64,000 nucleotides of DNA from an uncultured Gammaproteobacteria bacterium (GCA_965231015.1 OZ246408.1:686595-750594); one strand, 5' to 3'; numbered from the stretch's first letter, positions 10,840-60,773 are shown. The notes: generated by a model from the sequence alone, not told the origin. Numbers and translations: made by a program.

Positions 10840-13005
10840 ATGGGAAGAATCAACCAAATCGGACTTAGTATTTCTGATGCCTCGATCGAAATGATCCAGG
10901 TGACAAAGTCCGGCAAAAATAAAGCTAAAATTATCAGCACAGCCACCGGTCCGATACCGGCCGGTATTATTAATCGTGGTGTAATAAAGGATCATGAAAA
11001 GTTGATTCAGGTATTAAACAAGGTCTACGAGTCGGCCAAACCCAAACCTTTTAACACTAAGGATGTATCGGTATCTTTGCCTGACAATGTGGCTTTTACG
11101 CATGTTTTTAAGTTCCCGGGTGCCTTAAACGAAAACGATGTTGCATCAACTTTAAAATTTGAAGCCGAAGACATAATCCCTTACCCCATTGATGACCTGT
11201 ACGTCACCTTTAAAATAATCAAACAGAACGAAGAAAAAACCGATGTTTTGTTTGTAGGTGCCCCTAAAGATATTATTGACGGTTACGTTACCACCCTTGA
11301 AGAGGCGGGCTACAAAATAAAACAATTGGAAATTGAAGCCAACGCTTTGATTCGCGTTCTTATTCCGGGTATTGCTAAGGGTAAAGCAGTCATGATTATG
11401 GATCTTGGTGGCACCAACACTCGCTTCACCTTGGCTGATGAAGAAGGTCTGAACGGGTCTTTCAGCCTACCAGTTGGTGGCAATGCTATCACAGAAGCAA
11501 TTGCCAAAGAGCTCAGTATCTCCGGACGTGAAGCAGAAGCGTTAAAGAAAAAGAAGAGCAAAGGAAAGAAGGCAAAAGTAATTGAAAAAGCAATTGATGA
11601 ATACCTGGAGAAAATAGTAGAAAAGGCTGAAAAAGTGATTGAGTGGTATGGTCGAGAGGACGAAGGTCAATTAGATAAAATGGTCCTGACCGGCGGTGGA
11701 AGTGGTCTGCCCGATTTAACTGAAAAGCTGTCTCAAAAACTAACCGCGCGTAAGCTTTCCATGGATATTGTCATGGGCAGCCCTTGGCAGAACATTGAAA
11801 CCAAGACCGCTCCCAAGCCCGCCTCGGTAAGTGGCCGGATATTTGCACCGGCTCTTGGGGCTGTTCCGATTAAATCAAGCAAGCTGGTTCCGGAAATCGA
11901 CTTAATAGACGTCCTCGGCAAAAGAAGAAATCCATTTAAAAATGTTTCTAACGTCCAAAAAACTGTTGATTTAATGGCTAAGCAAGATCCAGGGGCAGAT
12001 AAAGAACCTTTATCTTTACGTCGATTATCCGTTCTCATTAATCAATACAACACTGTCTTTGCCATCATTGCCGCAGCAATAATTGTGGGGGCAATTGGTT
12101 TTATTATCTTCTGGCTCTTTTTTGCTGATCGCGATTTTCAACAATTAACCACACCAACAACAACTACGGAACCGACCATCACTGAAGAAGTTGGTGAAGA
12201 GCAGGATGAGAGTGAAACAGAAGCCACAACTGGTCAGTTAATTCTACAAATGGATATAAACGCCAGAACTAGTGATGTAGTAGCGGCCAACTATCAAGAA
12301 GTGCCTAGTTACGGAACCACTTTCAGCTACCAACTAGAAGCCACAGAAACAGTGGACAGTGTTGCCTCGGGACGAGTTACTTTGTTTAACAACACTTCTG
12401 CAGACCAACCTTTAATAACCACCACGCGTCTACTTTCTGAAGACGGGGTATTATTTCGTTTAACCAATGCGGTCACAGTTCCGGCTGAAGGTCAGATTGA
12501 GGCAGAGGTTTATGCTGACCAAGCAGGGGCTTCAGGCAATATTGCTTCAACCAGTTTTACGATCCCCGGCCTACCTGACTCCCTACAAGCAGACATTTAT
12601 GCCACAAGCTCCGAGGCCATGAGTGGCGGCACCGAAGAAGTAGCTATCTTTTCAGAAGAAGTATATGAACAGGCTCTAGCTGAACTAAAAAGACAATTAC
12701 TTAGTACGCCGAGCAACCTGTTTGGTGCTGAATCAACTGAAAACACCTACCTGGTTGATTTGGCAGAATTGGAGCCGGTGGAGTTAGAAACATCGGTTGA
12801 AATCGGGCAAAGTACGGATGTGGTTGAACTCATAGGAACGGTTAGTATTTCTGCTCTGTCTTTTAGTGAAACCAATCTAAAAGAAGTTATCAAAACGGTT
12901 TTAGAAAAACCGGACGCCCAGGTTGAAATAAACGGTATCTCGGTTGAAAGTGTTGCAGATGACCTGCAAACAGCTGAACTGGATGTGGAGTATTCGACGG
13001 ATTAG
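10840..13005 (+). CDS. pilM: PilM-like actin-fold ATPase fused to a TM segment and a ~290-aa extracytoplasmic acidic domain (PilM-PilN/O-like fusion)
   Basis: The N-terminal ~350 aa has a PilM/FtsA-like fold (MDLGGTNTRFTLADEEG, VLTGGGSGLPDL). A TM helix VFAIIAAAIIVGAIGFIIFWLFF lies around aa 405-428. The C-terminus is T/E-rich. Confidence 0.7.
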   Translation: MGRINQIGLSISDASIEMIQVTKSGKNKAKIISTATGPIPAGIINRGVIKDHEKLIQVLNKVYESAKPKPFNTKDVSVSLPDNVAFTHVFKFPGALNENDVASTLKFEAEDIIPYPIDDLYVTFKIIKQNEEKTDVLFVGAPKDIIDGYVTTLEEAGYKIKQLEIEANALIRVLIPGIAKGKAVMIMDLGGTNTRFTLADEEGLNGSFSLPVGGNAITEAIAKELSISGREAEALKKKKSKGKKAKVIEKAIDEYLEKIVEKAEKVIEWYGREDEGQLDKMVLTGGGSGLPDLTEKLSQKLTARKLSMDIVMGSPWQNIETKTAPKPASVSGRIFAPALGAVPIKSSKLVPEIDLIDVLGKRRNPFKNVSNVQKTVDLMAKQDPGADKEPLSLRRLSVLINQYNTVFAIIAAAIIVGAIGFIIFWLFFADRDFQQLTTPTTTTEPTITEEVGEEQDESETEATTGQLILQMDINARTSDVVAANYQEVPSYGTTFSYQLEATETVDSVASGRVTLFNNTSADQPLITTTRLLSEDGVLFRLTNAVTVPAEGQIEAEVYADQAGASGNIASTSFTIPGLPDSLQADIYATSSEAMSGGTEEVAIFSEEVYEQALAELKRQLLSTPSNLFGAESTENTYLVDLAELEPVELETSVEIGQSTDVVELIGTVSISALSFSETNLKEVIKTVLEKPDAQVEINGISVESVADDLQTAELDVEYSTD

Positions 13006-13073: not shown

Positions 13074-13556
13074 ATGATAAATTTCAGGCGAAACAAAGAG
13101 GGTTTTACTTTGGTCGAGCTCCTCATTGTGATCGCAATCATTGTGATCCTGTTCGCTGTCATCTTGGTGGCCGTTGATCCACCAAAGCGACTTGGTCAAG
13201 CTCGAGATGCTGTGCGCCGTCAGGACGTTCGTGATATCCTCGAAGCGGTCCAACAATACATGGTGGACAACGATGGGGCTTACCCAACCGGACTGGACGC
13301 TGTTTCAGCCTCCTTCCAAGTACTTGGTACTGATGCCGCTGGATGTGACAGCACTTGTACAGCTGAAACTGCCCTGGCTGCTTGTTTAGACATGTCCGGT
13401 GACTTAGTTGAGGAATATCTGGCTGATATTCCATTTGATCCATCAAGCGGAGATGCTGGAAACACAGATTATGCTATCAATCGTACGGCTGGTGACCGCA
13501 TTGAAATAGTTGCTTGCGACCCGGAAATTGCAGCCACCATTTCAGTTAAACGATAA
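13074..13556 (+). CDS. Type IV major pilin (paralog 1)
   Basis: MINFRRNKEG|FTLVELLIVIAIIVILFAVILVAV is a canonical prepilin. A Cys-containing variable C-terminal region follows. An extended -10 promoter and a downstream terminator are present. Confidence 0.9.
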   Translation: MINFRRNKEGFTLVELLIVIAIIVILFAVILVAVDPPKRLGQARDAVRRQDVRDILEAVQQYMVDNDGAYPTGLDAVSASFQVLGTDAAGCDSTCTAETALAACLDMSGDLVEEYLADIPFDPSSGDAGNTDYAINRTAGDRIEIVACDPEIAATISVKR

Positions 13557-13671: not shown

Positions 13672-14151
13672 ATGATAAATTTCAGGCGAAACAAAGAGGG
13701 TTTTACTTTGGTTGAGCTCCTCATTGTGATCGCAATCATTGTGATCCTGTTCGCTGTCATCTTGGTGGCCGTTGATCCACCAAAGCGACTTGGTCAAGCT
13801 CGAGATGCTGTGCGCCGTCAGGACGTTCGTGATATCCTCGAAGCGGTCCAACAATACATGGTGGACAACGATGGGGCTTACCCAACCGGACTGGACGATG
13901 TTCAAACCTCATATCAGGTACTCGGAACCGGAGTTGGTTGTGACACCACTTGTGGTGCTGCTACCACCCTACCTGCTTGTTTAGACATGTCCGGTGACTT
14001 GGTTGAGGAATACCTGGCTGATATTCCATTTGACCCATCAACCGGAAGTGCGGCTAACACTGATTATGCCATCGAGCTAACTGCTGGCGACAGAATCGAA
14101 GTTTTAGCTTGTGACCCAGAAATTGCAGCCACAATTTCGGCCAAACGATAA
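13672..14151 (+). CDS. Type IV major pilin (paralog 2, tandem duplicate)
   Basis: The first 227 nt match paralog 1 with 1 mismatch. The middle and C-terminal regions diverge. Confidence 0.9.
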   Translation: MINFRRNKEGFTLVELLIVIAIIVILFAVILVAVDPPKRLGQARDAVRRQDVRDILEAVQQYMVDNDGAYPTGLDDVQTSYQVLGTGVGCDTTCGAATTLPACLDMSGDLVEEYLADIPFDPSTGSAANTDYAIELTAGDRIEVLACDPEIAATISAKR

Positions 14152-17064: not shown

Positions 17065-17120
17065 AAATTAAGATAGGTAAGGGTACCTCTCGTGGGTGCC
17101 CTTATTTTGTTTATCTACTC

Positions 17121-17290
17121 TGTTTGTCTCCGCCACTTCGAGTACGACGGAGGTCAATGGACATTTTGACCGGCTCGTGACGAGGATTGTTTGAAGCCGA
17201 GCATCCACCAAAAAAAAGACGCAAGGCAAGTCCCGCAGTCAAAGTTAGAAATGTTCATTATTCACCTCAGGCGAACGCAGAAAGAAAGAA
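17121..17290. repeat. Conserved ~170-nt noncoding element, copy A
   Basis: Shares collinear blocks with copy B. It starts just after the terminator of the 940-aa gene. Confidence 0.6.
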
Positions 17291-17302: not shown

Positions 17303-18223
17303 TTATACCTTAAGATAACGCCGCATAGCCATGCTAGAGGCGATAATATTGATCAAAAGTAAACCAAGCACCTGGGCTCCGAAAATTAATAAAAAGTTTT
17401 CATTGAAGTACCCAATGAGGTTTGAGGTAATAGGATCAAAGAAAGCGTCAAACCTGGGCTCCAAAACTCCTAATAACGGATAAAGAAGAATTATGGTTAT
17501 GGCGGTGGCAAGCAAACTAAAGATACCGGCTTCGGCAAAAAACGGAGCGCGGATAAAGAAACTTGAAGCTCCAACCAATCGCATAATAGATATTTCTTCA
17601 CGATGAATAAAGATGGCTACCCGAACCGTGTTAAACACAATCATGACCACAAACAACAAAAAGACTCCGGACAAGGCCAGACCAAACCAACGCACATGAT
17701 CAGTCACTCGGTTGATGCTGCCAATAATAGCCTCATAATCATCGAACTCTTTCTTCTCAATGTAGTCCCGGAACTGTGGATTATCAAGGGACTCTAAAAT
17801 AAAATCAAAGTCCTTTGGTGAACGAGCCGAAACCACCAGTGACGGACCAAACGGATTACCCTCAACTTCTTCCAAAGAACTTAATATGTCCGGATCCTCA
17901 CTGTGACGCTCAACAAAGCGGTTATATGCCTCGTCTGACGTGATCAAAACCGCATCTTGGACTTGAGGCAGGCCATTTAAATATCCCTGTGCGCCCTCTA
18001 CTATTTCCAACGAAGTGTCCGGCTCAAAATAGACTGAGATATCCACTTTTGATTCTACGGCCGCAATAGCAGTCTCGGTCACAACGTTTAAAATCACAAG
18101 CACATTTACGGTCAACAAAGTCAGTACCAACATGCTCACGGTGATAATCGAAAGCCAAAAGTTGCGCCAAAAATTTTGAAACGCAAACTTGATTATGCGA
18201 TATGTAGCGGTTATTAGATTCAC
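17303..18223 (-). CDS. ftsX: Cell division permease FtsX
   Basis: 306 aa. It has a large extracytoplasmic loop between TM1 and TM2, and C-terminal TMs (MRLVGASSFFIRAPFFAEAG). It overlaps ftsE by 4 nt. Confidence 0.85.
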   Translation of the reverse strand: MNLITATYRIIKFAFQNFWRNFWLSIITVSMLVLTLLTVNVLVILNVVTETAIAAVESKVDISVYFEPDTSLEIVEGAQGYLNGLPQVQDAVLITSDEAYNRFVERHSEDPDILSSLEEVEGNPFGPSLVVSARSPKDFDFILESLDNPQFRDYIEKKEFDDYEAIIGSINRVTDHVRWFGLALSGVFLLFVVMIVFNTVRVAIFIHREEISIMRLVGASSFFIRAPFFAEAGIFSLLATAITIILLYPLLGVLEPRFDAFFDPITSNLIGYFNENFLLIFGAQVLGLLLINIIASSMAMRRYLKV

Positions 18224-22049: not shown

Positions 22050-23405
22050 TTATTTTATTTTTTGTAAAGCCTTCCGAGCTTCTGCCCGATCGTCCCAAGG
22101 AATGGTTTTGCCGTGTTTAATGGCCATAACCGGCTCACTTCCCTTTCCGGTTATCAAGACAATGTCACCGGATTCAGCCAATCTAACAGCTCGTTGAATA
22201 GCCTCACTACGATCCAAGATCTTAAACAGGTCTTTATTTTCAACCGAGCCTGATTCAAGCGCTCCAGCGGCTACCTGATCGATTATAGCCTGCGGGTAAT
22301 CGTCATACGGATCTTCATTAGTCACAATTGTAATGTCAGCAAACTGACTGGAAATAGCACCGATTTTGGGACGACGGGCCACATCTCGTCCACCGCCGGT
22401 TGACCCAGTTACGTGAATGATTCGTTTGTAATTAAAGTGCTCAACTGTTTCAAATAATTTCGTTAAAGCCACTGGCTCAAAGGCATAATCAACAATCACA
22501 GTAAAATCCTGACCTTCGTCAATTACTTCGATTCGACCTGGCACAAGTTCGAGTTTTGATACTCCGCGAGCGATTACGTCCCAACCAAACCCGAGAGCGC
22601 GAGCCACCGCAATGGCCGCGAGAACGTTCATGACGTTGAATAACCCAAGTGGCTTGAGTTCAAACTCATGTTCTCCAACCATGAAACTCGATCCCGCAGC
22701 AGACGTTTTGATCTCCGAGGCTAAGATCTGCACGTCGCAGATGGTACGCGGCCCGTCGTTCTTGGTCGACGTGCGACGTGCGACGTGCGACGTGCCAAAC
22801 CCATACGTTTTCTCTGACTTAAACGAAGCAAAGTAATCAACGTATTCATCATCAAGATTTAGAATCTTAGTCTTCATTGGCTTCGTTGATTCGTTGCTTC
22901 GTTGATTCGTTGATTCCATTAAATGCTCAAACAATTTTCCTTTGGCTTGCTTATAGTTTTCAAACCCACCATGGGCTTCGATGTGCTCGGGTGTAAGATC
23001 AGTTATTAAAACCACATCGTAATCGATTCCAAGGTGTCGATATTGATCAATCCCCTGCGAACTGGTTTCAATCACCGCGTACTTTACTCCGCTCTTTACC
23101 ATTTGGCGCAACAATCTCTGCAACTGAAACCGACCGAGCATGGTCATTTTTTTATCATTGGTCCACTCGCGTCCAGCTACCTTGAAAGAATTCGTGGTCG
23201 CCCATCCGACCTGCTCGCCAGCGTATTCCAAAATCTGCCCGATCCACTCACAGGTGGTGGTCTTACCATGTGTTCCAGTAACCCCGATAACTACGAGCTC
23301 TTGAGACGGATTTCGGTATAGCCAAGCAGCCAAATACGACAAAACCCAGTGATATACCTTAATCACCGGCTCTGGCACGAGCTTTCGTACAAAATGTTTA
23401 ATCAT
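22050..23405 (-). CDS. Mur ligase family protein (MurE/MurF-like)
   Basis: 451 aa. VVIGVTGTHGKTTT P-loop, DYDVVLITDLTPEH, GLFNVMNVLAAIAVARALG and a C-terminal ITGKG. It contains two short tandem nucleotide repeats (see findings). Confidence 0.75.
   Translation of the reverse strand: MIKHFVRKLVPEPVIKVYHWVLSYLAAWLYRNPSQELVVIGVTGTHGKTTTCEWIGQILEYAGEQVGWATTNSFKVAGREWTNDKKMTMLGRFQLQRLLRQMVKSGVKYAVIETSSQGIDQYRHLGIDYDVVLITDLTPEHIEAHGGFENYKQAKGKLFEHLMESTNQRSNESTKPMKTKILNLDDEYVDYFASFKSEKTYGFGTSHVARRTSTKNDGPRTICDVQILASEIKTSAAGSSFMVGEHEFELKPLGLFNVMNVLAAIAVARALGFGWDVIARGVSKLELVPGRIEVIDEGQDFTVIVDYAFEPVALTKLFETVEHFNYKRIIHVTGSTGGGRDVARRPKIGAISSQFADITIVTNEDPYDDYPQAIIDQVAAGALESGSVENKDLFKILDRSEAIQRAVRLAESGDIVLITGKGSEPVMAIKHGKTIPWDDRAEARKALQKIK
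22767..22794. repeat. Four tandem copies of heptamer CGACGTG inside the Mur ligase CDS
   Basis: Direct reading: cgacgtg x4. The unit length is not a multiple of 3. Confidence 0.8.
22882..22917. repeat. Tandem ~8-nt repeats (TCGTTGAT/TCGTTGCT) inside the Mur ligase CDS
   Basis: ttcgttgattcgttgcttcgttgattcgttgattcc. Confidence 0.7.
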
Positions 23406-23536
23406 GTAGGCTTATTTTAGCAGGAAAAGACAGTGAAAACAAGGACGTAAAACCACCAAACCACGCACCACTCAATCTTTAAACAGACCTTTATTCTCGT
23501 ACGGACGAAAATAAGATACAAAAATATTGTACACTT

Positions 23537-23552
23537 TTTCACGATCGTGAAA
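23537..23552. promoter_or_regulatory. Perfect 16-nt palindrome TTTCACGATCGTGAAA (putative operator)
   Basis: Perfect dyad located 134 nt upstream of the Mur ligase start and downstream of the ArsR gene. The core recurs three times at 58.5-59.0 kb. Confidence 0.6.
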
Positions 23553-23570
23553 TTTTATACAATTTCTCAT

Positions 23571-23590
23571 TTTTACTTTCGTGCGAATGT
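23571..23590. repeat. Direct repeat copy 1 (TTTTACTTTCGTGCGAATGT) flanking the ArsR gene
   Basis: Differs by one mismatch from the copy at 23874-23894. Confidence 0.6.
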
Positions 23591-23602
23591 ACTGATGATC
23601 AT

Positions 23603-23863
23603 CTATAACATTCCGAGAATATATTTTGATGGTTGATCAGATATCGACTCGAGGCAGTAAATTTTTTCTTTCCCAACATATGAACCTTTTACCAGATCAA
23701 CTGACCTCAGGATTGCCAAATGTCTAGAGGTCGATTTCAAAGATAAATCAATCTTATCTGCTATCTCCCAAACCGAGGCTTTTTTCTCTTTTTTTAGATA
23801 CGCCAATATTTCCAATCTCTTCTTATTCGCCAACGCTTTTAATTGTTTCTCCATGTTTTTCAT
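23603..23863 (-). CDS. ArsR/SmtB-family winged-helix transcriptional regulator
   Basis: 86 aa. HTH region LEILAYLKKEKKASVWEIADKIDLSLKSTSRHLAILRSVDLV. Confidence 0.75.
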   Translation of the reverse strand: MKNMEKQLKALANKKRLEILAYLKKEKKASVWEIADKIDLSLKSTSRHLAILRSVDLVKGSYVGKEKIYCLESISDQPSKYILGML

Positions 23864-23873
23864 ATTTTTTTAA

Positions 23874-23894
23874 TTTTCACTTTCGTGCGAATGT
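23874..23894. repeat. Direct repeat copy 2 (TTTTCACTTTCGTGCGAATGT), immediately upstream of the ArsR start codon
   Basis: See copy 1. Confidence 0.6.
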
Positions 23895-23930
23895 CCCTAT
23901 ATACTCAAACAAAATCGCACATATATTTTA

Positions 23931-25388
23931 TCATTTATCATTCGACATTCCGATCTTCCCCACTTCCTCCTTAAACTGATCACCGCGGTCGAATTCATTT
24001 TTAAAGATTCCGAAACTAGCACAACCCGGCGAGAGCAAGACCACGTCATCCTTAGTGGCGATTTCACGGGCGGCTTCTACGGCCTTGGGCATGGAATCAA
24101 TTCGCATAGTGCTCACGTCTTTACCTATCGCTGCTTCGAGTTTGTCTGTCGCCGTTCCCTCGAATAAAATGACGTGCTTACACGTGGCTCGAATCACATT
24201 TCCAAGTTCGTCAAAACCTAGCCCCTTATCCGCACCACCGGCTAGCAAAACGATGTTGCTATTTTGGCCAAAGCGCTGCAGTGCCGCAATAGCGGCAGCC
24301 GGTGCAGTCGCGGTCGTATCGTTCACGTACTTTACTCCGCCAATTTCGTCCACGAGTTCTTGCCGGTCGGCTACCCCCTCGAAAGTCGAGAGCACCTCGC
24401 GAATAGTTTCTGATTCTACGTCACGAAGTCGAGCTACTGCAATGGCCGCAAGTGCGTTTTCGAGATTATGATTCCCTGGTTGGGCTAACTCCGATTTCTG
24501 CATCACAACTTCTTCTCCACTCTCAGTTCGCCACACAACCTCATCGCCACGAGCAAAAGCCCCAAACTTACCTTCTGGCAATTCGGACTTGGAAAACCAA
24601 AATAACCGACTTGGAACTTTGGGTTCGAGTTCACGAGTTTGGTCTTGGTCGAAATTTAACACACATGACTGATCAGACGTTTGGTTCTTGAAAATAACAG
24701 ACTTGGCTTCAATATAATGATCCATCGAGTCATAACGATTTAAATGATCTTCGTACAAGTTTGTGAGCACAGCCACTTCTGGCCCGCGTTTAACGTCGGC
24801 TAGAGTCTCTAGCAACCAACTAGAAAGCTCGAGCGTGACTGGTCGTGGTTCCCGTTCTTCTACAATTTCGTCCAAAAACTCGAGCGGCGAAACCTTGATA
24901 TTTCCGGCTACCACAGCTCGCTCATCCACCTCAAGCATAATATCCCCGATCATACTTACAGTCGTTGATTTACCTTTTGCCCCGGTCACGGCTACAAATG
25001 GATGAGGATCAAGTTCATAAAAAATTGACACGTCCGAAATCACCGGCACATTATGATCTTTAGCGATTTTTAAGAACTCGGACTCGCGTGGCACGTCTGG
25101 ATTTTTCACCACAAATTGAGCATTAGCAAAATCTTCTTCGTGGTGCTCCCCCATTACAAAAACTGGATGATAAATTTCACGGTCAGTGATATCGGCCTTG
25201 TATTTGGAAAACCATTTCATCACCTCTTTAACCGACTCTTTAAGATCTTCTTCTGTTTTTAAATCTGTAATCACGGTCTGGGCACCATGACGCATTAACC
25301 ATTTAGTGGCCCCGACACCACTTCCTTGTAAAAAGCGACCGAGTCCCATCACGGTCACCACAGAATCTTTAAAAACTTCAACTTGCAT
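23931..25388 (-). CDS. murD: UDP-N-acetylmuramoylalanine--D-glutamate ligase MurD
   Basis: 485 aa. N-terminal Rossmann VTVMGLGRFLQGSGVGATKWLMRHGAQTVITD, central VTGAKGKSTT, and a Mur ligase C-domain. Confidence 0.75.
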   Translation of the reverse strand: MQVEVFKDSVVTVMGLGRFLQGSGVGATKWLMRHGAQTVITDLKTEEDLKESVKEVMKWFSKYKADITDREIYHPVFVMGEHHEEDFANAQFVVKNPDVPRESEFLKIAKDHNVPVISDVSIFYELDPHPFVAVTGAKGKSTTVSMIGDIMLEVDERAVVAGNIKVSPLEFLDEIVEEREPRPVTLELSSWLLETLADVKRGPEVAVLTNLYEDHLNRYDSMDHYIEAKSVIFKNQTSDQSCVLNFDQDQTRELEPKVPSRLFWFSKSELPEGKFGAFARGDEVVWRTESGEEVVMQKSELAQPGNHNLENALAAIAVARLRDVESETIREVLSTFEGVADRQELVDEIGGVKYVNDTTATAPAAAIAALQRFGQNSNIVLLAGGADKGLGFDELGNVIRATCKHVILFEGTATDKLEAAIGKDVSTMRIDSMPKAVEAAREIATKDDVVLLSPGCASFGIFKNEFDRGDQFKEEVGKIGMSNDK

Positions 25389-42495: not shown

Positions 42496-42519
42496 ATTGC
42501 CTGCCGGTACCCCACCTAA

Positions 42520-42547
42520 CCTCCCCTTAGAGGGGAGGGATTTTTGT
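42520..42547 (+). terminator. Intrinsic terminator after the PEGA gene
   Basis: cctcccct-tag-aggggagg followed by GATTTTTGTT. Confidence 0.8.
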
Positions 42548-42722
42548 TCCGCCACTTCGAGCACGACGGAGGTCAATGGACATTTTTGACCGACCCCGTC
42601 AGACGGGGTGACGAGAACTGTTTGAAGCTGAGTGTCTACCTTAAGAACAGACGGCGCGAGGCAAGTTTCGTAGTCAAGGTCATAAAATATTCATTATCTA
42701 CCTCCGGTGATCACAGAAAGAC
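42544..42722. repeat. Conserved ~170-nt noncoding element, copy B
   Basis: About 70% identical to copy A. It lies between the PEGA-gene terminator (42520-42547) and the murA terminator (42795-42835). Confidence 0.6.
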
Positions 42723-42794
42723 GGCCGGTTTCTTTTTTCTGGTTTTCTTTGCCGGCTCAAAGAAAACTGGGTTGAATCAAAAAGCACCGTAACA

Positions 42795-42835
42795 GAAAAC
42801 CGCCCCGCCAACGTATAAAACGTGGCGGGGTCCCG
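42795..42835 (-). terminator. Intrinsic terminator of murA
   Basis: On the minus strand: ccccgccacg-ttttata-cgttggcgggg followed by a T-run. Confidence 0.7.
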
Positions 42836-42875
42836 CCAGAGGCGGGAAACGGTGCCAATATTATATTTCTGAGCG

Positions 42876-44135
42876 TTAATCAGCTCGTTCGATATCGACG
42901 CCAACAGATTGCAACCGTTCGACCAAATTCGAATATCCTCGCTCGATCTGATAAATATTCTCAATCTCGGTTGTACCACGCGCGATCATGGCCGCAATAA
43001 CCATGGCAATGCCAGCCCGGATATCCGGGCTGATTAATTTTCGCCCATACAACTTACTTGGACCGTTCACTACTACCCGATGCGGATCACACATAATAAT
43101 ATTGGCTCCCATTTGAACCAACATATCAGTGAATAACAACCGACGTTCATAAATTGTTTCATGAACCACACAAGAACCATTAGCCCGAGTCATCAACACG
43201 GTGTAAGGCGATTGCAAATCAGTTGGGAAGCCAGGATACTCGTGAGTTCGTATTCCATAGGCCTTTATATCACCTGATGACTTTATATCAAGCCAATCTT
43301 CTCCGGTCTTCCATTCCACTCCGATTTTATTAAAGATGGTCAACAAAGATTCGATATGTGATGGATCGCAATTGGTAATTTTAAGAGCCGAACGAGTAGC
43401 CGCGGCCATGATTGCAAAAGTACCGGTTTCAATTCGGTCAGGCACGACATTAAATGTTCCAGCTTTCAATTTTTTCACCCCTTCGATAGTGATCGTCGGG
43501 GTTCCAGCTCCAGAAATCTTGGCTCCTTGTTCATTTAAATAATCTGCTAAGGCCTTGATTTCCGGCTCCATGGCACAATTCTTCAACACCGTGGTACCTT
43601 CTGCTAGCGTAGCTGTCATCATTAAACTTTCCGTTCCGGTCACACTGACAAGACTAAAGAAATACTCCGCACCTTTTAGTTTCTTGGCAGAAATTTCATA
43701 TGCCCCTTTGCCAATTTCAACCTTAGCTCCAAGTGCCTCAAAACCTTCCAAGAACAAATCGATTGGCCTGGTTCCAGCCCCAATCACACAACCGCCAGGA
43801 TGCGGAAAACGGACCTTGCCAAGCCGAGCCAAAAGCGGCCCCACAAACATGAGCGAAGTTCGAATCTTGTTGGCAAACTCTGGGTCTAGTTCATTTTTTT
43901 TCAAACCGTTATTATCAATTTCACAAGTTCCATTTTCACACTTCACCTCGAGCCCCAAGTCTTCGGCCAGCTCTAACATACGACGTACATCTTCAATGTC
44001 AGGCAAATTATTGATCGTCAGCTTCCCTTCACCAAGCAGGGCGGCCGGAATAATTTTTAAAGCCGAGTTCTTGGCTCCTTGAACTGCAATCTCACCTTTT
44101 AAATGACTCTTTCCTTTAATAACGTATTTGGACAT
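42876..44135 (-). CDS. murA: UDP-N-acetylglucosamine 1-carboxyvinyltransferase MurA
   Basis: 419 aa. MSKYVIKGKSHLKGEIAVQGAKNSALKIIPAALL, and an active-site Cys in RFPHPGGCVIGAGTRPID. Confidence 0.9.
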   Translation of the reverse strand: MSKYVIKGKSHLKGEIAVQGAKNSALKIIPAALLGEGKLTINNLPDIEDVRRMLELAEDLGLEVKCENGTCEIDNNGLKKNELDPEFANKIRTSLMFVGPLLARLGKVRFPHPGGCVIGAGTRPIDLFLEGFEALGAKVEIGKGAYEISAKKLKGAEYFFSLVSVTGTESLMMTATLAEGTTVLKNCAMEPEIKALADYLNEQGAKISGAGTPTITIEGVKKLKAGTFNVVPDRIETGTFAIMAAATRSALKITNCDPSHIESLLTIFNKIGVEWKTGEDWLDIKSSGDIKAYGIRTHEYPGFPTDLQSPYTVLMTRANGSCVVHETIYERRLLFTDMLVQMGANIIMCDPHRVVVNGPSKLYGRKLISPDIRAGIAMVIAAMIARGTTEIENIYQIERGYSNLVERLQSVGVDIERAD

Positions 44136-44872: not shown

Positions 44873-45331
44873 TTACTTGTTTTCTTTCTCAAGAATCTTT
44901 TGAATTTCTTTTAGTGCGTTACGACCACCCTGACGCCATTCATCTAACTGATACTCCAACTGACGATGCTGAACCGCCAATTCATTTGCTTCATCTCCCA
45001 AGTCATCGCCTTCTGTTTCCAAAAATTCAGCAGCTCCAAGTTTTTTACTTAACCAATCCAACAATTCTCTGGCCTCCTTGATTATATCTTTTTCCTCTCC
45101 TTCAAGTTGACCTAGCCGTAACAATTCTCTACCACGCTGTACAAAACCCTGCAGGCCAGGCAAGGAATCAGTTGCTTCTTTGATATCCTCCAGGTACTTT
45201 TTTAGTTCTTCTAAATGCAAGTTGTCTAAAACATTTTCTTGTTCTATAAGTTTGGTGACCCCGTCTTTTAAATCACTTAGCTCGGCCTTTAATCCCTCTT
45301 TTTGTAATTCAGGTGATTCGTGTCTAGTCAT
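44873..45331 (-). CDS. Acidic coiled-coil hypothetical protein
   Basis: 152 aa, E/K/L-rich, no motif. Confidence 0.4.
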   Translation of the reverse strand: MTRHESPELQKEGLKAELSDLKDGVTKLIEQENVLDNLHLEELKKYLEDIKEATDSLPGLQGFVQRGRELLRLGQLEGEEKDIIKEARELLDWLSKKLGAAEFLETEGDDLGDEANELAVQHRQLEYQLDEWRQGGRNALKEIQKILEKENK

Positions 45332-54351: not shown

Positions 54352-54915
54352 ATGATTGAAATTAATCATGAGGTTCCCAACATTGAACTTGAGGCCTACC
54401 ACGGCAACGAAATTAAGAAACTTCATCTTAATGATTACCGTGGCAAATGGCTGATCTTGTTCTTTTATCCGGCTGACTTTACCTTTGTTTGTCCTACTGA
54501 ACTTGGTGAAATGGCCGATCTGTACGAAGAGTTTAAAAAAGCTGACGCCGAAGTTCTTAGTGTTAGTACTGACACAGTCTTCGTTCACAAGGCCTGGCAT
54601 GACGAGTCCGAGACAATAGGTCGAATCGAGTTTCCAATGGTAGCTGATCCAACCGGTAAACTGTCACGTCAAATGGGAGTTTACATCGAAGACGAAGGTG
54701 TGGCCTTGCGAGGAAGTTTCGTGATTGATCCAGACGGCATTCTGAAGGCGTTTGAGATTCATGACAACAGTGTAGGACGATCCGCTACCGAGCTCTTGCG
54801 TAAACTCCAAGCGGCTAAATTCGTTCGCGAACATGGCGGCGAGGTTTGTCCGGCCAATTGGAAACCAGGTGGTGATACTTTGAAGCCAGGGCTCGACTTA
54901 GTCGGTAAAATTTAA
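54352..54915 (+). CDS. 2-Cys peroxiredoxin (AhpC/Prx family)
   Basis: Peroxidatic Cys motif FTFVCPTE, and a resolving Cys in GEVCPANW. Confidence 0.9.
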   Translation: MIEINHEVPNIELEAYHGNEIKKLHLNDYRGKWLILFFYPADFTFVCPTELGEMADLYEEFKKADAEVLSVSTDTVFVHKAWHDESETIGRIEFPMVADPTGKLSRQMGVYIEDEGVALRGSFVIDPDGILKAFEIHDNSVGRSATELLRKLQAAKFVREHGGEVCPANWKPGGDTLKPGLDLVGKI

Positions 54916-54926
54916 GCTTAAAATAA

Positions 54927-54954
54927 CCTTAATTGTCCACGTGGTCAAATAAGG
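54927..54954. promoter_or_regulatory. 28-nt palindrome CCTTAATTGTCCACGTGGTCAAATAAGG between peroxiredoxin and SOD
   Basis: Near-perfect dyad centred on CACGTG. A second copy is at 58688-58715. Confidence 0.55.
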
Positions 54955-54963
54955 TACAAACAT

Positions 54964-56840: not shown

Positions 56841-57951
56841 AAACTGATTCTAACTTGTCAATCAAAATAGATCCAGCATACATTTGTTCGGCTCGAGTTC
56901 GAGCTGTCCGACCCATCACCTCCCGAGTCTGATAATCTTTTAAAAGCTCAGTCAGGGTCTTGGCCAGAACGTTCGGATCACCCGGTTTAACGAGCTGTCC
57001 AGTCTTGCCCGGCTCGATCACACTGCGTACACCTGGCAAGTCCGAGACAATGGACGGTATACCACTAGCGGCTGCTTCCACAGTCACGATTCCAAAGGCT
57101 TCCGAGCTATCCGTCGACGGTAAAACATGTACGTCTGCGGCACGATAATACTCAGGCAAATCTTCAGGCCCAACACTACCTGCAAAAATAACCCGATCAG
57201 CCAAACCATGAACGCGAGCGGTTTCTTCGTAACTCGATTTCAAGTCTCCTGAGCCAACCACTACCAAATGCCAAGGAAAATTTTTAATCTGTTCAAACGC
57301 TCGTAACAACACCGACACCCCCTTGAAGTAATGAGCCTTATCGAGTCCGCCCACAAAAATAATAACGGGTTCATTTTTTGGAATTCCAAATTTTGACCGA
57401 ACTGAGTCTCCTGTTCCTGGATGGAATTGATTTATGTCGACCCCAAAAGGCATCTCAACAACATCCGACGAACGACGTGCGACAAGCTCGGAGATCTTTG
57501 AGTGCTTTGCATAATCAAGTGAGCTGATCAAAATCTTATCCGAAATTTCCAACACCATTTTTCGCATCACAGCCCCGTGAGTCTTGTCAATTAAACCAAC
57601 CAGGCCGCCTTTTTTAATGTCCATGTGGTAGGTCGTGACTAAGAGTTTATTTCCCATGGCCTTCCACATGGCCACAAACTCGGCCCCACCAAAAAATGGA
57701 TAGTGGAGATGAACGACATCGAAACCAATCAGTTCGTTCCTTAAACTCGGCAAGGCAGCAGCGTTACCAAACTTAATGAGCGGTTTGATCCGATGAACGT
57801 ATTCAGGATCGTTTTTGACTGGTCGATACTTTGGCGTAAACACCTGAACGTCGTGTCCTCGAGCTCGCAGCTTTTCGGTATATTCAAAAGCCACGGTGCC
57901 AATTCCACCGCGGTATGGGGGGTAAACAGGAGTAACTTGAGCTATTTTCAT
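56818..57951 (-). CDS. Glycosyltransferase family 4
   Basis: GT-B fold: STDSSEAFGIVTVEAAASGIPSIVSDLPG. Confidence 0.8.
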   Translation of the reverse strand: MKIAQVTPVYPPYRGGIGTVAFEYTEKLRARGHDVQVFTPKYRPVKNDPEYVHRIKPLIKFGNAAALPSLRNELIGFDVVHLHYPFFGGAEFVAMWKAMGNKLLVTTYHMDIKKGGLVGLIDKTHGAVMRKMVLEISDKILISSLDYAKHSKISELVARRSSDVVEMPFGVDINQFHPGTGDSVRSKFGIPKNEPVIIFVGGLDKAHYFKGVSVLLRAFEQIKNFPWHLVVVGSGDLKSSYEETARVHGLADRVIFAGSVGPEDLPEYYRAADVHVLPSTDSSEAFGIVTVEAAASGIPSIVSDLPGVRSVIEPGKTGQLVKPGDPNVLAKTLTELLKDYQTREVMGRTARTRAEQMYAGSILIDKLESVYENLHHN

Positions 57952-58527
57952 ATCCTGTTGATTTTAGCTTAAAATCAGGTTAAAGTACAATTCAATCTAA
58001 ATTTTTCCAATTGACGTTTATGCTCAGGCGTGGCAGTATAACGTGTCAAAGCGAAAATTAATCGGACAATCTCCCAAAACCTATAGGAGGCAACATAGAA
58101 ATCATTAGAATGGAGTGGGTCTTCGTGGTCATTCTTCTGATGAGAAAATTCACTGAGGGGAAAACATGAAGTTCGTGATTTTGCAAGACCCCCCTCGCTG
58201 GGGGAGACGGATCGCAAGATATACGCAACCACGCCGGGCGGCTTTCGAGATCCCGAGTCAACAGTGCTTGGGGAGTTCGAAACTGAAGCCCCCAATCACC
58301 TCATTGGTGACTTGGGAATCCTGACTTGCTTTGGGCGCAATGCTTTCAAAACAGGTGCAAATTGGGCTCGTGAAAATCCCGACAAGTCGTTCGATGAGGA
58401 CTGCGCACGGCGACGAGGTTTACCGTTGGTTAGTGGTGTTTTCAACAAACGTCACTAGCCGAGGGCTTTTTATTAATCACTAAACCAATTTTATCGAAAT
58501 TAAACTTTTTCCTACTCGGCCAAAATC

Positions 58528-58539
58528 TCACGATCGTGA
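58528..58539. promoter_or_regulatory. Palindrome TCACGATCGTGA, unit 1 operator
   Basis: Centred about 43 nt upstream of the downstream -10 hexamer 58571-58576. Confidence 0.6.
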
Positions 58540-58545
58540 AATTTC

Positions 58546-58576
58546 GGACAATCAATATAAATATTGTGTGTATAAT
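58546..58576 (+). promoter_or_regulatory. Promoter, unit 1 (GGACAA -35, 19-nt spacer, extended -10 TGTGTATAAT)
   Basis: TGnTATAAT at 58567-58576. The predicted TSS is near 58583. Confidence 0.55.
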
Positions 58577-58582
58577 GCGTAC

Positions 58583-58725
58583 CATTTAATCTTTTAGTTA
58601 AAAGGTTGTCGGGAGTGCATTGTATAAAAAGTGGACGACCGTCAAAAAGCAACCAACCACAAGGTGCTAATACGTAAAAGAAAAAAACCTTATTTGACCA
58701 CGTGCACAAATAAGGACCTTTTTTG
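58583..58725 (+). ncRNA. Candidate small RNA, unit 1 (~140 nt), ending at the 28-nt palindrome plus U-run
   Basis: A 5' stem-loop UUAAUC-UUUU-AGUUAA. The 3' hairpin ccttatttg...caaataagg (58688-58715) is followed by TTTTTT. There is no conserved ORF. Confidence 0.4.
58688..58715. promoter_or_regulatory. 28-nt palindrome CCTTATTTGACCACGTGCACAAATAAGG (copy of the prx-sod dyad)
   Basis: Same half-sites as 54927-54954. Here it is followed by a T6 run, so it looks terminator-like. Confidence 0.55.
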
Positions 58726-58802
58726 ACTTAATGTTATTACCTCTTTCCCCTACCACAAAATCAACTTAATCATATCTGAATAATATGCTTTCTCAGGCAA
58801 AA

Positions 58803-58818
58803 TCTCACGATCGTGAGA
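58803..58818. promoter_or_regulatory. Perfect 16-nt palindrome TCTCACGATCGTGAGA, unit 2 operator
   Basis: Same position relative to the unit 2 promoter as in unit 1. Confidence 0.6.
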
Positions 58819-58822
58819 TTTT

Positions 58823-58852
58823 GGTCAATCGGTACAAAAATTTATGTAAAAT
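58823..58852 (+). promoter_or_regulatory. Promoter, unit 2 (GGTCAA -35, 18-nt spacer, extended -10 TATGTAAAAT)
   Basis: Aligns base-for-base with the unit 1 promoter. The predicted TSS is near 58859. Confidence 0.5.
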
Positions 58853-58981
58853 AGGCTCCATTTAACCTTTTGGTTAAATGATCATTCGGTGTTTATTGTA
58901 CAAAAATAGACGGTCGTCAGATAATATACAATTCAAAACCTGTCAATCTTAAATCGAACTATGCATTATTTCGACAAAAAT

Positions 58982-58993
58982 TCGCGATCGTGA
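58982..58993. promoter_or_regulatory. Third, imperfect copy of the operator (TCGCGATCGTGA)
   Basis: One mismatch to the TCACGATCGTGA core. It lies inside unit 2. Confidence 0.4.
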
Positions 58994-59141
58994 AAAAGTG
59001 CCGAAACTAAAAACCAACACGGTTTATACAATCGTATAAACCGTGTTGGTTCAATCAAATTCGATTGGCATTCCATGTCTTGTTTTTGTCTTTTTTGTTC
59101 CCTATCACCAAATCAACTTATTAATTACTTTCCAAAAGTAA

Positions 59142-59179
59142 AAACCCTGCCCGAGGGTTGGCTCGGGCAGGGTTTTTTT
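59142..59179. terminator. Bidirectional intrinsic terminator (12-bp GC-rich stem)
   Basis: accctgcccgag-ggttgg-ctcgggcagggt with T-runs on both strands. It ends the lipoprotein gene on the minus strand and the repeat-region transcripts on the plus strand. Confidence 0.85.
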
Positions 59180-59183
59180 ATTT

Positions 59184-60773
59184 CTACATCTTTTCCCAGA
59201 TATTTATGGCTAAACCTTGCATGGCCGGTATAGTGGTCAACAAATTCCCCTCTTTTTTAAATTCCATACCTTGTCCAGTCTGATCCTCACTGAAATAGAT
59301 CGTTACGGTTGAGCCCTCATAAACATAGTTCATATCAGCAACATAGTCTGAGCTCAAATTGTATTGACCTGTACCATCGGCATTTAAAACCAGGTGGGCA
59401 TCCGGATACATGAGAAGGGCTGTGTCTTTTCTATACCCTTCACCAATTATTTCTATCAATCTATAGGTCCCTGCTACATCACTCAGATTGCTTCCAACAT
59501 TAGTCTCCTCCTCAACCACTTCTTCCCCAACTACCTCTTCTGTCTCTTCCACCTGCGGTGGTGGTTCGTATTCATTCAGACCAAATTGACTGGCGTCAAT
59601 CTCGGCTTGCGTTTGTTCTTCCAGGTTCTTTTGCCAGTTGTTCAGGTTTACAGAGGTAACATCGTTAAGACCGAAACTGGCCACATCAATGGTCTGGTCC
59701 TCTCCGTTTGTTACTTCTAAATCTTCAATCAGAGCCACTTCTTCAGTACTGTCTGAAGTGGTAACGTCCCACTCACCTTCCGGAAGTTCAATGGTTGCTT
59801 CTGGTGCGTCCTCTACAGCTAGAGCTACCATGAGTGGTCCATCAGTTTGAGCTTTAGTGAAAATAGCGTCAGCAATTTGGTCTTGTGTGGTTTCTTCCAA
59901 AGCGTCCCAAGATGAACCAATAGCATCATCATCAATAGCTCCGGCTAAAGAGCCTACACTTTCATTAATTGCCAGAAACACCTTTTTCTTGTCTCCGGTG
60001 GTTGTGGTGTTAGAGTTTTTAACAATAATATCGGCTTTTCCCACACTGTCTAACTCGCGTTTGGTAACCAGTTGTTTTACTACGTTTTCAGCGTAACCGC
60101 TTGGAGTAATTGGGTTTTCTCCGCCAGTGACTGCTTGACTGGCTTCCACCACGGTTTCGACAGCGGTTTTTCCAAGATCAGTGACTACCTTGGTCCAATC
60201 AATCAGTCCACCCACTTCTGGGTCACGAGATAGTCTTTCAATGGTGCTGTCGCTTGCATTTTCAAGGTCACTAACTGAACTCAAACCGTGATACTCCAAA
60301 ATTCGGTCACGGTCTCCACTGTACATATCCTGCAATCCGGTATAAATGCCTTCTCGAGCTGTTTCAATGGATTGATGTTTGGCTTTTACTAGTGAGCCAA
60401 AGATAGGAATGTAGTAGAGCCAGCTGGAACGCTTTTTGGCGTACGCCGCACGGATGAGCGGATCAAGCGCTGCGTTTGTGGACCCTTGTTCCATCAGCTC
60501 AGCCATTTTTTCAGCTTGAGCCATGGATTCATTGGCAATAGCCAAGAAGGCATGGTAGTTTTCAAAAAAGATGTCTGAATCCGCTTCACTAGCGGCAAAG
60601 ATCATGTTTTTGTCGTACTGGTTAAGGTAAACGACATTGTCATGAAAATCTGCCATGAGGTCTGCCGGATTGTATTGTCTGGCTTGTTTGTCAAAAAGAC
60701 TGCCCAGTGAGCAACCACTCAACAGTGAAGCCATGACCAACAAGACCAAAGCTTTTGGTATTAATTTTAACAT
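59184..60773 (-). CDS. Lipoprotein, unknown function
   Basis: Lipobox signal MLKLIPKALVLLVMASLLSGC|S. A bidirectional terminator lies at 59142-59179. Confidence 0.6.
   Translation of the reverse strand: MLKLIPKALVLLVMASLLSGCSLGSLFDKQARQYNPADLMADFHDNVVYLNQYDKNMIFAASEADSDIFFENYHAFLAIANESMAQAEKMAELMEQGSTNAALDPLIRAAYAKKRSSWLYYIPIFGSLVKAKHQSIETAREGIYTGLQDMYSGDRDRILEYHGLSSVSDLENASDSTIERLSRDPEVGGLIDWTKVVTDLGKTAVETVVEASQAVTGGENPITPSGYAENVVKQLVTKRELDSVGKADIIVKNSNTTTTGDKKKVFLAINESVGSLAGAIDDDAIGSSWDALEETTQDQIADAIFTKAQTDGPLMVALAVEDAPEATIELPEGEWDVTTSDSTEEVALIEDLEVTNGEDQTIDVASFGLNDVTSVNLNNWQKNLEEQTQAEIDASQFGLNEYEPPPQVEETEEVVGEEVVEEETNVGSNLSDVAGTYRLIEIIGEGYRKDTALLMYPDAHLVLNADGTGQYNLSSDYVADMNYVYEGSTVTIYFSEDQTGQGMEFKKEGNLLTTIPAMQGLAINIWEKM

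Follow-up and report, generated by a model that had tools for sequence, protein, structure and literature searches.

The twin intergenic elements found in the 64-kb window (the whole stretch of DNA that was analysed) may well be copies of an undescribed, lineage-restricted mosaic repeat of about 160–175 bp, of the MITE/REP type and unlike a vertically inherited RNA gene. The element sits just past a terminator, between cell-envelope genes that converge, and is gained, lost, replaced or inverted among close relatives while the flanking genes stay in place. Two full copies, A and B, are known from the window, together with one 40-nt fragment in a relative (L023); because 2.2 copies were recovered, we can only infer the mechanism. 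The finding is a modest one, that of an uncharacterised repeat and no demonstrated riboregulator. Judged by sequence, the source appears to be an Uhrbacteria-like Patescibacteria genome, and the named homologues of its MurA and FtsX proteins belong to Parcubacteria, Falkowbacteria, Uhrbacteria or the 'Patescibacteria group'.

Copies A and B are collinear over about 175–185 nt, with a mean column identity of 76% in a MAFFT alignment and 75.6% over 180 nt by BLASTN (69% when gap columns are counted). The preliminary description had reported twin collinear elements that were not a recent duplication. Both statements are borne out, the first by MAFFT, by BLASTN and by a search with a covariance model built from the two copies, and A and B are best described as old paralogues. 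The shared blocks were confirmed as quoted at that time: the window has exactly two occurrences of the 23-mer CGACGGAGGTCAATGGACATTTT, at 17145 and 42564, and 0 of 100 dinucleotide-preserving shuffles matched it, while the pattern GGCAAGTNNCGNAGTCAA also occurs exactly twice, a count that none of 100 shuffles of the same kind reached. The covariance model scored copy A at 204 bits and copy B at 218 bits and detected no third copy in the 64 kb. The refined boundaries (Table 1) are the points at which three independent flanks diverge, the left edge being taken from the flanks of A, B and L023. Each copy opens with a strongly conserved 40-nt left block, inside which an imperfect inverted repeat (IR) starts; the interior varies, and the right end is short and conserved (...CAGAAAGA).

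Table 1. Features of copies A and B and of the junctions that hold them, with positions counted from the first nucleotide of the window.
Feature	Position	Strand	Description
Copy A	17129..17285	+	From TCCGCC to CAGAAAGA; flanked by the terminator of the pilus-operon gene for the 940-aa protein and by the stop codon of ftsX
Copy B	42548..42721	+	Between the PEGA-domain gene terminator and M-module/murA
Intrinsic terminator of the upstream 940-aa gene	17075..17107	+	Copy A starts about 13 nt past its T-run
Intrinsic terminator of the PEGA-domain gene	42520..42538	+	Copy B starts immediately past its T-run
Conserved left block, copy A	17129..17167	+	TCCGCCACTTCGAGTACGACGGAGGTCAATGGACATTTT; 38/40 to B and 37/40 to L023 (40-nt comparison window)
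Conserved left block, copy B	42548..42586	+	Counterpart of the left block of A
Half-block, copy A	17133..17147	+	CCACTTCGAGTACGA; sole part kept at the syntenic R1 junction (L033 3093–3107)
Half-block, copy B	42552..42566	+	CCACTTCGAGCACGA
Left IR arm, copy A	17148..17170	+	CGGAGGTCAATGGACATTTTGAC; from folds and pair list
Right IR arm, copy A	17238..17270	+	GTCAAAGTTAGAAATGTTCATTATTCACCTCAG
11-nt IR core, copy A	17156–17166 / 17249–17259		Strict DNA scoring
Left IR arm, copy B	42567..42591	+	25 nt
Right IR arm, copy B	42678..42706	+	29 nt
Extra hairpin, B only	42593..42609	+	ACCCCG-TCAGA-CGGGGT; an 11-nt indel relative to A
Weak terminator-like hairpin with U8 run, inside copy A	17210..17237	−	First such signal after ftsX; not conserved in B
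M-module	42775..42875	−	Nested-hairpin terminator module directly after the murA stop, ending GAAATATAATATTGGCACCG; separate repeat family

The genomic setting described earlier, with a terminator just before each copy and the 3′ end of a minus-strand gene after it, holds at both junctions according to Pfam and terminator prediction. The copies begin 0–13 nt past the T-run of an intrinsic terminator on the plus strand. Upstream of A, a type IV pilus cluster ends with the gene for a 940-aa protein that has no Pfam match, and upstream of B lies the gene for a PEGA-domain protein. From downstream the copies are faced by the minus-strand genes for FtsX (17303–18223) and MurA (42876–44135), as identified by Pfam. 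The extra hairpin that had been pointed out in copy B is indeed present there. Just outside the right IR arm, both copies carry an 8-nt palindrome, GCGAACGC in A (17274–17281) and GTGATCAC in B (42709–42716), the two differing by one compensatory change from C-G to T-A; the palindrome may bind a protein or have arisen by chance. The pilus cluster upstream of A also includes a tandem pair of paralogous genes, each for about 160 aa, with N-terminal methylation (pseudopilin) motifs, at 13074–13556 and 13672–14151, that share 81–93% nucleotide identity.

The syntenic junctions were compared in relatives at several distances: R1 (Logan SRR28370467, SRR28370465 and SRR28093593; MurA 94% and the 940-aa protein 87% identical; L011–13 and L033–35), R2 (JGI 3300018065; FtsX 90%, MurA 93%; L023 and L038), R3 (GCA_054038955.1; MurA 79%, FtsX 73%; L014 and L036) and a set of NCBI and ENA assemblies with 74% FtsX identity (L024 and L027–32). 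At the murA junction, the spacer between murA and the PEGA-domain gene measures 381 nt in the window, 135 nt in R1 (L011) and 98 nt in R3 (L014) with the flanking genes alike, and despite these matching genes the element is absent from both L011 and L014. From the spacer of L011, whose MurA is 94% identical, the whole stretch corresponding to 42540–42875 is missing. No element follows murA in L016 or in R2 (L038) either, the gene neighbouring murA in L038 appearing to be a different one from a reading of the contig tail.

At the ftsX junction of R1 the gene order is kept (a 938-aa gene and convergent ftsX) and the spacer is of similar length, 227 nt. After the terminator, however, L033–35 contain only TTCTACCACTTCGAGCACGA, followed by a 75-nt sequence termed X and then by an M-module ending ...GCCAATATTATATTTC beside ftsX. 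Homology between L033 and the window stops at ACGA/CGGAGG, which is the outer edge of the IR. The body of X has no detectable similarity to that of the element, 13–39% of shuffles scoring equally well, and this shuffle test led us to reject the X cassette of L033 and L023 as a diverged orthologue of the element body. R2 (L023) likewise carries an X and M-module cassette beside ftsX; beyond it lies a full 40-nt left block that is inverted relative to the window and reads away from ftsX, and the contig ends within this block.

In R3 and the relatives with about 74% FtsX identity, the same junction is occupied by a tRNA-Gln gene in place of the element. This tRNA-Gln(UUG) lies downstream of ftsX in L036 (7400–7800), L024 (10921–11200) and L027 (10924–11150). 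In L036 a 5′ fragment of tRNA-Gln and the remnant of a GIY-YIG-like open reading frame (ORF) stand ahead of the intact tRNA-Gln copy, an arrangement suggestive of an insertion of the homing-endonuclease type by which part of the tRNA was duplicated. The tRNA-Gln found here in relatives prompted us to weigh a tRNA remnant as the origin of the element; this origin was rejected, as neither Rfam scans nor inspection found a tRNA in the element.

Insertion polymorphism is therefore seen at orthologous sites in the form of absence (murA junction), replacement (ftsX junction of L033) and inversion (L023). The presence, absence and inversion of the element at syntenic sites count for a mobile repeat, as do the break in L033 homology at the IR edge, the near-invariance of the left block, the other small palindromic modules of the lineage and the Y1 transposase encoded by a relative. 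A clean empty site matching both flanks was found in none of these relatives, which have different sequence there and no precise excision. When nhmmer and the covariance model were run over about 181 kb of the relatives' DNA, nothing was recovered beyond the L023 fragment and the half-block of L033. The additional homologues on which the preliminary description had let its element depend thus came down to one partial homologue (L023), with no further full copy.

The comparison also bears on the reading of A and B as a non-mobile cis module of gene 3′ ends, such as a terminator, a 3′-UTR stabiliser or a protein-binding site, which would be inherited vertically with rapid turnover, the two copies stemming from an old segmental duplication. 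This reading would explain why the block starts no more than 15 nt from a terminator T-run in three of four instances, why the half-block is kept at 15 of 15 positions at the syntenic R1 junction, and why the only terminator-like signal after ftsX, the minus-strand hairpin with its U8 run, lies within copy A. That signal, however, is not conserved in B, and the orientation of the block is flipped in L023. Moreover, the composite of half-block and M-module occurs at different loci in different genomes and with different interiors: beside murA in the source, it stands at the ftsX junction in both R1 and R2, and such a difference in position requires movement between loci. We consider a stationary cis module unlikely.

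A further arrangement in which A and B would be the attL/attR-like ends of an integrated island can be judged from the same synteny. The copies do lie in the same orientation, 25.4 kb apart, but the 25-kb interval consists of core genes (ftsEX, mur ligases, mraY, ftsW, CTP synthase and ribosomal proteins), in R1 the genes are arranged alike across both junctions and the element is missing, and the supposed ends are merely 76% identical. Conserved synteny led us to reject such an island, whose existence is scarcely credible.

The preliminary description had proposed that a conserved CGGAGGU pairs with ACCUCCG, and this pairing exists in both copies (folds and pair list). It had also held that there are no terminal inverted repeats and that the element is not MITE-like. 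The first of these statements proved wrong, as the closing pairing extends to an imperfect IR of 25 versus 29 nt, and the second is contradicted both by this IR and by the presence, absence or inversion of the element at syntenic junctions of relatives. In copy B, the IR pairs CGGAGGT-CAATGGACATTTTTGACC with the reverse complement of the opposite arm, CGGAGGTAGATAATGAATATTTTATGACC, with three mismatches and two gaps, and its score was equalled by 0.8% of shuffles. The IR of copy A is weaker and gapped; under strict DNA scoring just its 11-nt core scores, and 4.9% of shuffles do equally well. Because conserved sequence runs on for 20 nt beyond the IR on the left and for 16 nt on the right, the IR is sub-terminal.

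Several features count against a mobile repeat. The IR is poor for an active MITE and the conserved unit extends beyond it. Inspection of the A and B flanks at either candidate boundary found no target-site duplication, or at most an ambiguous CGA/TGA. The divergence of the copies, about 24–31%, is unlike that of a recent transposition burst. The known material amounts to two full copies and one 40-nt fragment, and no cognate transposase was found in the window. Finally, blockwise conservation of the interior is also expected of a functional RNA, and the fold test leans slightly towards the plus strand.

The blockwise sharing of sequence that had been described is real and markedly uneven. Within the left block, 42 of 44 alignment columns match between A and B, as against 66% in the remainder; the probability of this excess is about 3e-6 per alignment window and about 5e-4 after allowing for some 145 window positions. 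Between genomes, the left block of the source matches that of R2 at 37 of 40 positions, and its first 15 nt match R1 at 15 of 15. At fourfold-degenerate sites of ftsX, identity to the source is 35% for L023 (R2) and 44% for L033 (R1). Since these sites are saturated while the block retains 37 of 40 positions, the block is either constrained by purifying selection or recently exchanged.

These observations suggest how the repeat might behave. The element would move or recombine at the DNA level. A recombinase or transposase whose gene lies elsewhere might recognise its left block as an end, or selection might otherwise preserve this block, and a recognised or selected end would account for near-invariance across genomes in which synonymous sites are saturated. 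Upon read-through from neighbouring genes, the IR would fold as a long hairpin in the 3′ UTR. The minus-strand hairpin and U8 run of copy A may have been co-opted as the terminator of ftsX; that this signal is not conserved in B suggests that the co-option was local.

The elements had been described as noncoding, with short ORFs that are not conserved, and this assessment is upheld. The indels that separate A from B are 1, 11, 4 and 1 nt long, so that no reading frame is conserved, and none of the ORFs overlapping either copy has a Pfam match (E ≤ 1). A relic of a protein-coding gene (an ORF that was split or became a pseudogene) or a very short leader peptide behind GGAGG-N3-ATG could nevertheless be suspected, given that GGAGG is followed by ATG on both strands and that an 82-aa ORF spanning B matches a protein (P0361) among 1.84 billion representative proteins at a nominal E = 3e-31. 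The target, however, is an 83-aa repeat present 20 times in tandem without variation; every unit is matched at 29% identity and about 26 bits, and the E value is an artefact because a weak match is summed over the 20 repeats. The other protein matches to this ORF are long repeat proteins with repeat-inflated scores, the inflation having been checked for P0361. In copy A, moreover, the frame of the 82-aa ORF runs into a stop, and the short peptides are unlike each other (7 versus 11 codons). With frame-breaking indels, no Pfam match and an artefactual protein match, the coding hypothesis was rejected, including the pseudogenised ORF that the preliminary description had allowed for; it is very improbable.

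The most substantial alternative to the repeat is that A and B are a pair of sibling small RNA genes, plus-strand units that would start at or near the left block, with this block as a seed or protein-binding region and with a long closing helix, copy B ending at the M-module hairpin. The strongest point in its favour is the near-invariance of a 40-nt 5′ block despite saturated synonymous sites. Both copies are noncoding, and in both a plus-strand closing helix of about 23 bp is possible. All 37 pairs of the structural model are canonical or G-U in either copy, nine of them changed on one side and one on both, but this model was derived from those two sequences themselves. Downstream of copy B, the plus strand offers a compound hairpin followed by AAUAUUAUAUUUCU; copy A, on the other hand, has no plus-strand terminator before ftsX.

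Single-sequence fold z-scores are unremarkable (−0.1 to −2.2), and RNAalifold, given the two sequences, finds structures without broken pairs on the plus and minus strands alike. The control consisted of column-shuffled alignments that preserve the conservation and gap pattern, and was applied to two full sequences only. Against it, the z-score of the plus strand was −1.37 over the full element, where 9.7% of shuffles fold equally well, and −1.76 over the core, where 6% do; the minus strand gave −0.24 and −0.13, respectively. The structure conservation index of the two-sequence alignment is not above that of column shuffles. The fold test therefore shows a slight lean to the plus strand (z about −1.8 versus −0.1 for the core) that is not significant and falls short of evidence for a conserved fold. 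The closed, structured RNA that had been suggested earlier is accordingly not demonstrated as a conserved structure, with plus-strand z-scores of −1.4 to −1.8 and 6–10% of shuffles equally good.

The search of Rfam that had been recommended in the preliminary description returned no family on either copy, even at E ≤ 10, where just noise appeared in the flanks; at the gathering threshold, Rfam 15 found two tRNAs only in the whole window and matched neither copy. A consensus scan, which non-consensus promoters escape, detected no sigma-70 promoter on either strand at A or B, and the sequence upstream of the left block differs in all four instances. The missing Rfam family, the non-significant fold and the missing consensus promoter count against an RNA gene. 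For sibling small RNAs the weakest points are the promoter and the distribution of the element, which is absent at syntenic sites of relatives with 87–94% protein identity and inverted in another. Taken together, we regard a pair of small RNA genes as doubtful.

A bolder form of the same idea is that the twins represent a functional RNA class new to candidate-phyla-radiation bacteria: sibling RNAs of about 170 nt with an invariant 40-nt 5′ module and a closing helix resembling a pairing of SD and anti-SD, placed at the 3′ ends of operons for cell division (ftsEX) and the cell wall (murA). We give this only a slim chance. If true, such RNAs would regulate envelope growth or serve an unlinked recombinase as its guide or recognition RNA, and the latter role would also account for the movement of the element.

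The mobile repeat can be compared with several known systems. Like MITEs and the ERIC and Correia elements, it falls in the range of 120–180 bp, is noncoding and intergenic, would form a long hairpin if transcribed, is present or absent at orthologous sites in either orientation, and often stands beside terminators. Unlike them, it has no visible target-site duplication, its IR is imperfect and sub-terminal (20 and 16 nt are conserved outside it), only its left arm is strongly conserved, its copies have diverged by about 24%, and it has no known parent insertion sequence. With REP/BIME mosaics, including REPINs and their Y1 transposase RAYT, it shares a position at gene 3′ ends between convergent genes and the formation of mosaics with other palindromic modules; a Y1 transposase was found in R3, but the repeats that flank it are unrelated in sequence. 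REP units are, however, 20–40 nt long and highly repeated, in contrast to an element of about 170 nt with two copies in 64 kb and no RAYT in the window. As several defining features of MITEs, ERIC/Correia elements and REP/BIME mosaics are either not shown by the element or not open to judgement from the copies available, we class it as a family not yet described, of the same broad type, and assign it to no named family.

The palindromic elements of Rickettsia (RPEs) are selfish palindromic repeats of about 100–150 bp that persist in a reduced genome, where they often insert in frame within genes. Copies A and B, by contrast, are strictly intergenic, and no sequence relationship to RPEs is expected. 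Sibling small RNAs, such as the 6S-1/6S-2 pair, resemble the twins in being two paralogous noncoding loci of about 170–180 nt whose 5′ and 3′ ends pair. The twins differ from them in that no promoter of their own was found and the loci lack syntenic stability. They differ from 6S RNA in having no match to it or to any other Rfam family at E ≤ 10 and in a predicted structure that combines a closing helix with branches inside it, where 6S RNA has a rod with a central bubble.

Outside the relatives, the exact 18-mer GACGGAGGTCAATGGACA has six matches in 185k species-representative genomes, five in JGI metagenome contigs and none in IMG/VR, and all of these matches were attributed to chance. The L023 copy differs at two positions within this 18-mer; since the sequence is not invariant, the absence elsewhere is valid only for the exact 18-mer core. 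Viral sequences scanned with CCGCCACTTCGAGYACGACGGAGGT, TGACGAGNANTGTTTGAAGC, AGGCAAGTNNCGNAGTCAA and the M-motif yielded either no match or matches attributable to chance. The one at L040 falls within an ORF of 747 aa, and the matches to the M-motif have a phage 19-mer in common. BLASTN in distant mode against phage and plasmid collections gave no match. A search of the literature found no report on small repeats or small RNAs in Patescibacteria, and for small/6S RNAs there was none among the best 10 results.

The genomes of Patescibacteria, about 1 Mb in size, are strongly reduced, and hardly any of their noncoding content has been charted. If several families of small palindromic modules are kept and exchanged in this lineage, mobile-DNA dynamics would persist under extreme streamlining, and the modules would supply strain-level markers. 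A 40-nt block that remains 92% identical where neutral sites are saturated would mark either a recombination recognition site or a functional RNA segment.

Other small palindromic modules do occur in spacers of the lineage, namely the M-module, a twin GGCGGGG hairpin, a GGTACC..CCTAACC unit and a 27-nt IR unit (L014). The M-module shares 75% identity with L033 (3180–3262) over 101 nt and 93% with L023 (2066–2094) over 29 nt, and a 20-mer from it is unique in the window. Its site is after murA, beside copy B, in the source, and after ftsX in R1 and R2. In L023, an inverted 19-nt copy, GGAAATATAATATAGGCAC (18 of 19 positions), lies about 130 nt from the M-module, and the two together delimit a MITE-like unit some 165 nt long.

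The twin hairpin, CCCCGCC..GGCGGGG followed by TCCCGCC..GGCGGGA, is present in the window (42817–42849), in L014 (12056–12088), in L036 (16993–17026) and in L024 (about 11630–11700). It recurs in unrelated spacers of relatives whose proteins are just 73–79% identical, and looks like a REP-like repeat family. The 38-nt unit at 42501–42538, which consists of GGTACCCCACCTAACC and the hairpin CCTCCCCTTAGAGGGGAGG, is single in the window and serves as the terminator of the PEGA-domain gene. In R1 (L011 11278–11390) the same unit, 95% identical, forms an inverted REPIN-like pair that fills the spacer between murA and the PEGA-domain gene.

The window contains no transposase, and likewise no Y1 transposase or RAYT; a 152-aa gene near copy B (44873–45331) was tested as a Y1 transposase and is not one. 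In R3 (L014 749–1285 and 2506–2739), a Y1 (IS200-like) transposase of 178 aa scores 31.1 bits against a cut-off of 23, and 27-nt IRs lie near murA. The Y1 gene is flanked by CCTTTAGG(T/G)TGTTAT repeats that are unrelated in sequence to the element, and the 27-nt IRs, just upstream of murA, stand 180 nt apart around a 46-nt tandem duplication.

Elsewhere in the window there are four occurrences of the palindrome TCACGATCGTGA, each with A/T-rich flanks (23539–23563, 58528–58552, 58805–58829 and 58976–59000). They fall in two long intergenic gaps (23405–23931 and 57951–59184), and the palindrome looks like the operator of a dimeric regulator. A pair of 50-nt inverted repeats, 78% complementary and each with a CACGTG core, lies 3.7 kb apart at 54906–54955 and 58687–58736 and brackets a superoxide dismutase gene and two glycosyltransferase genes.
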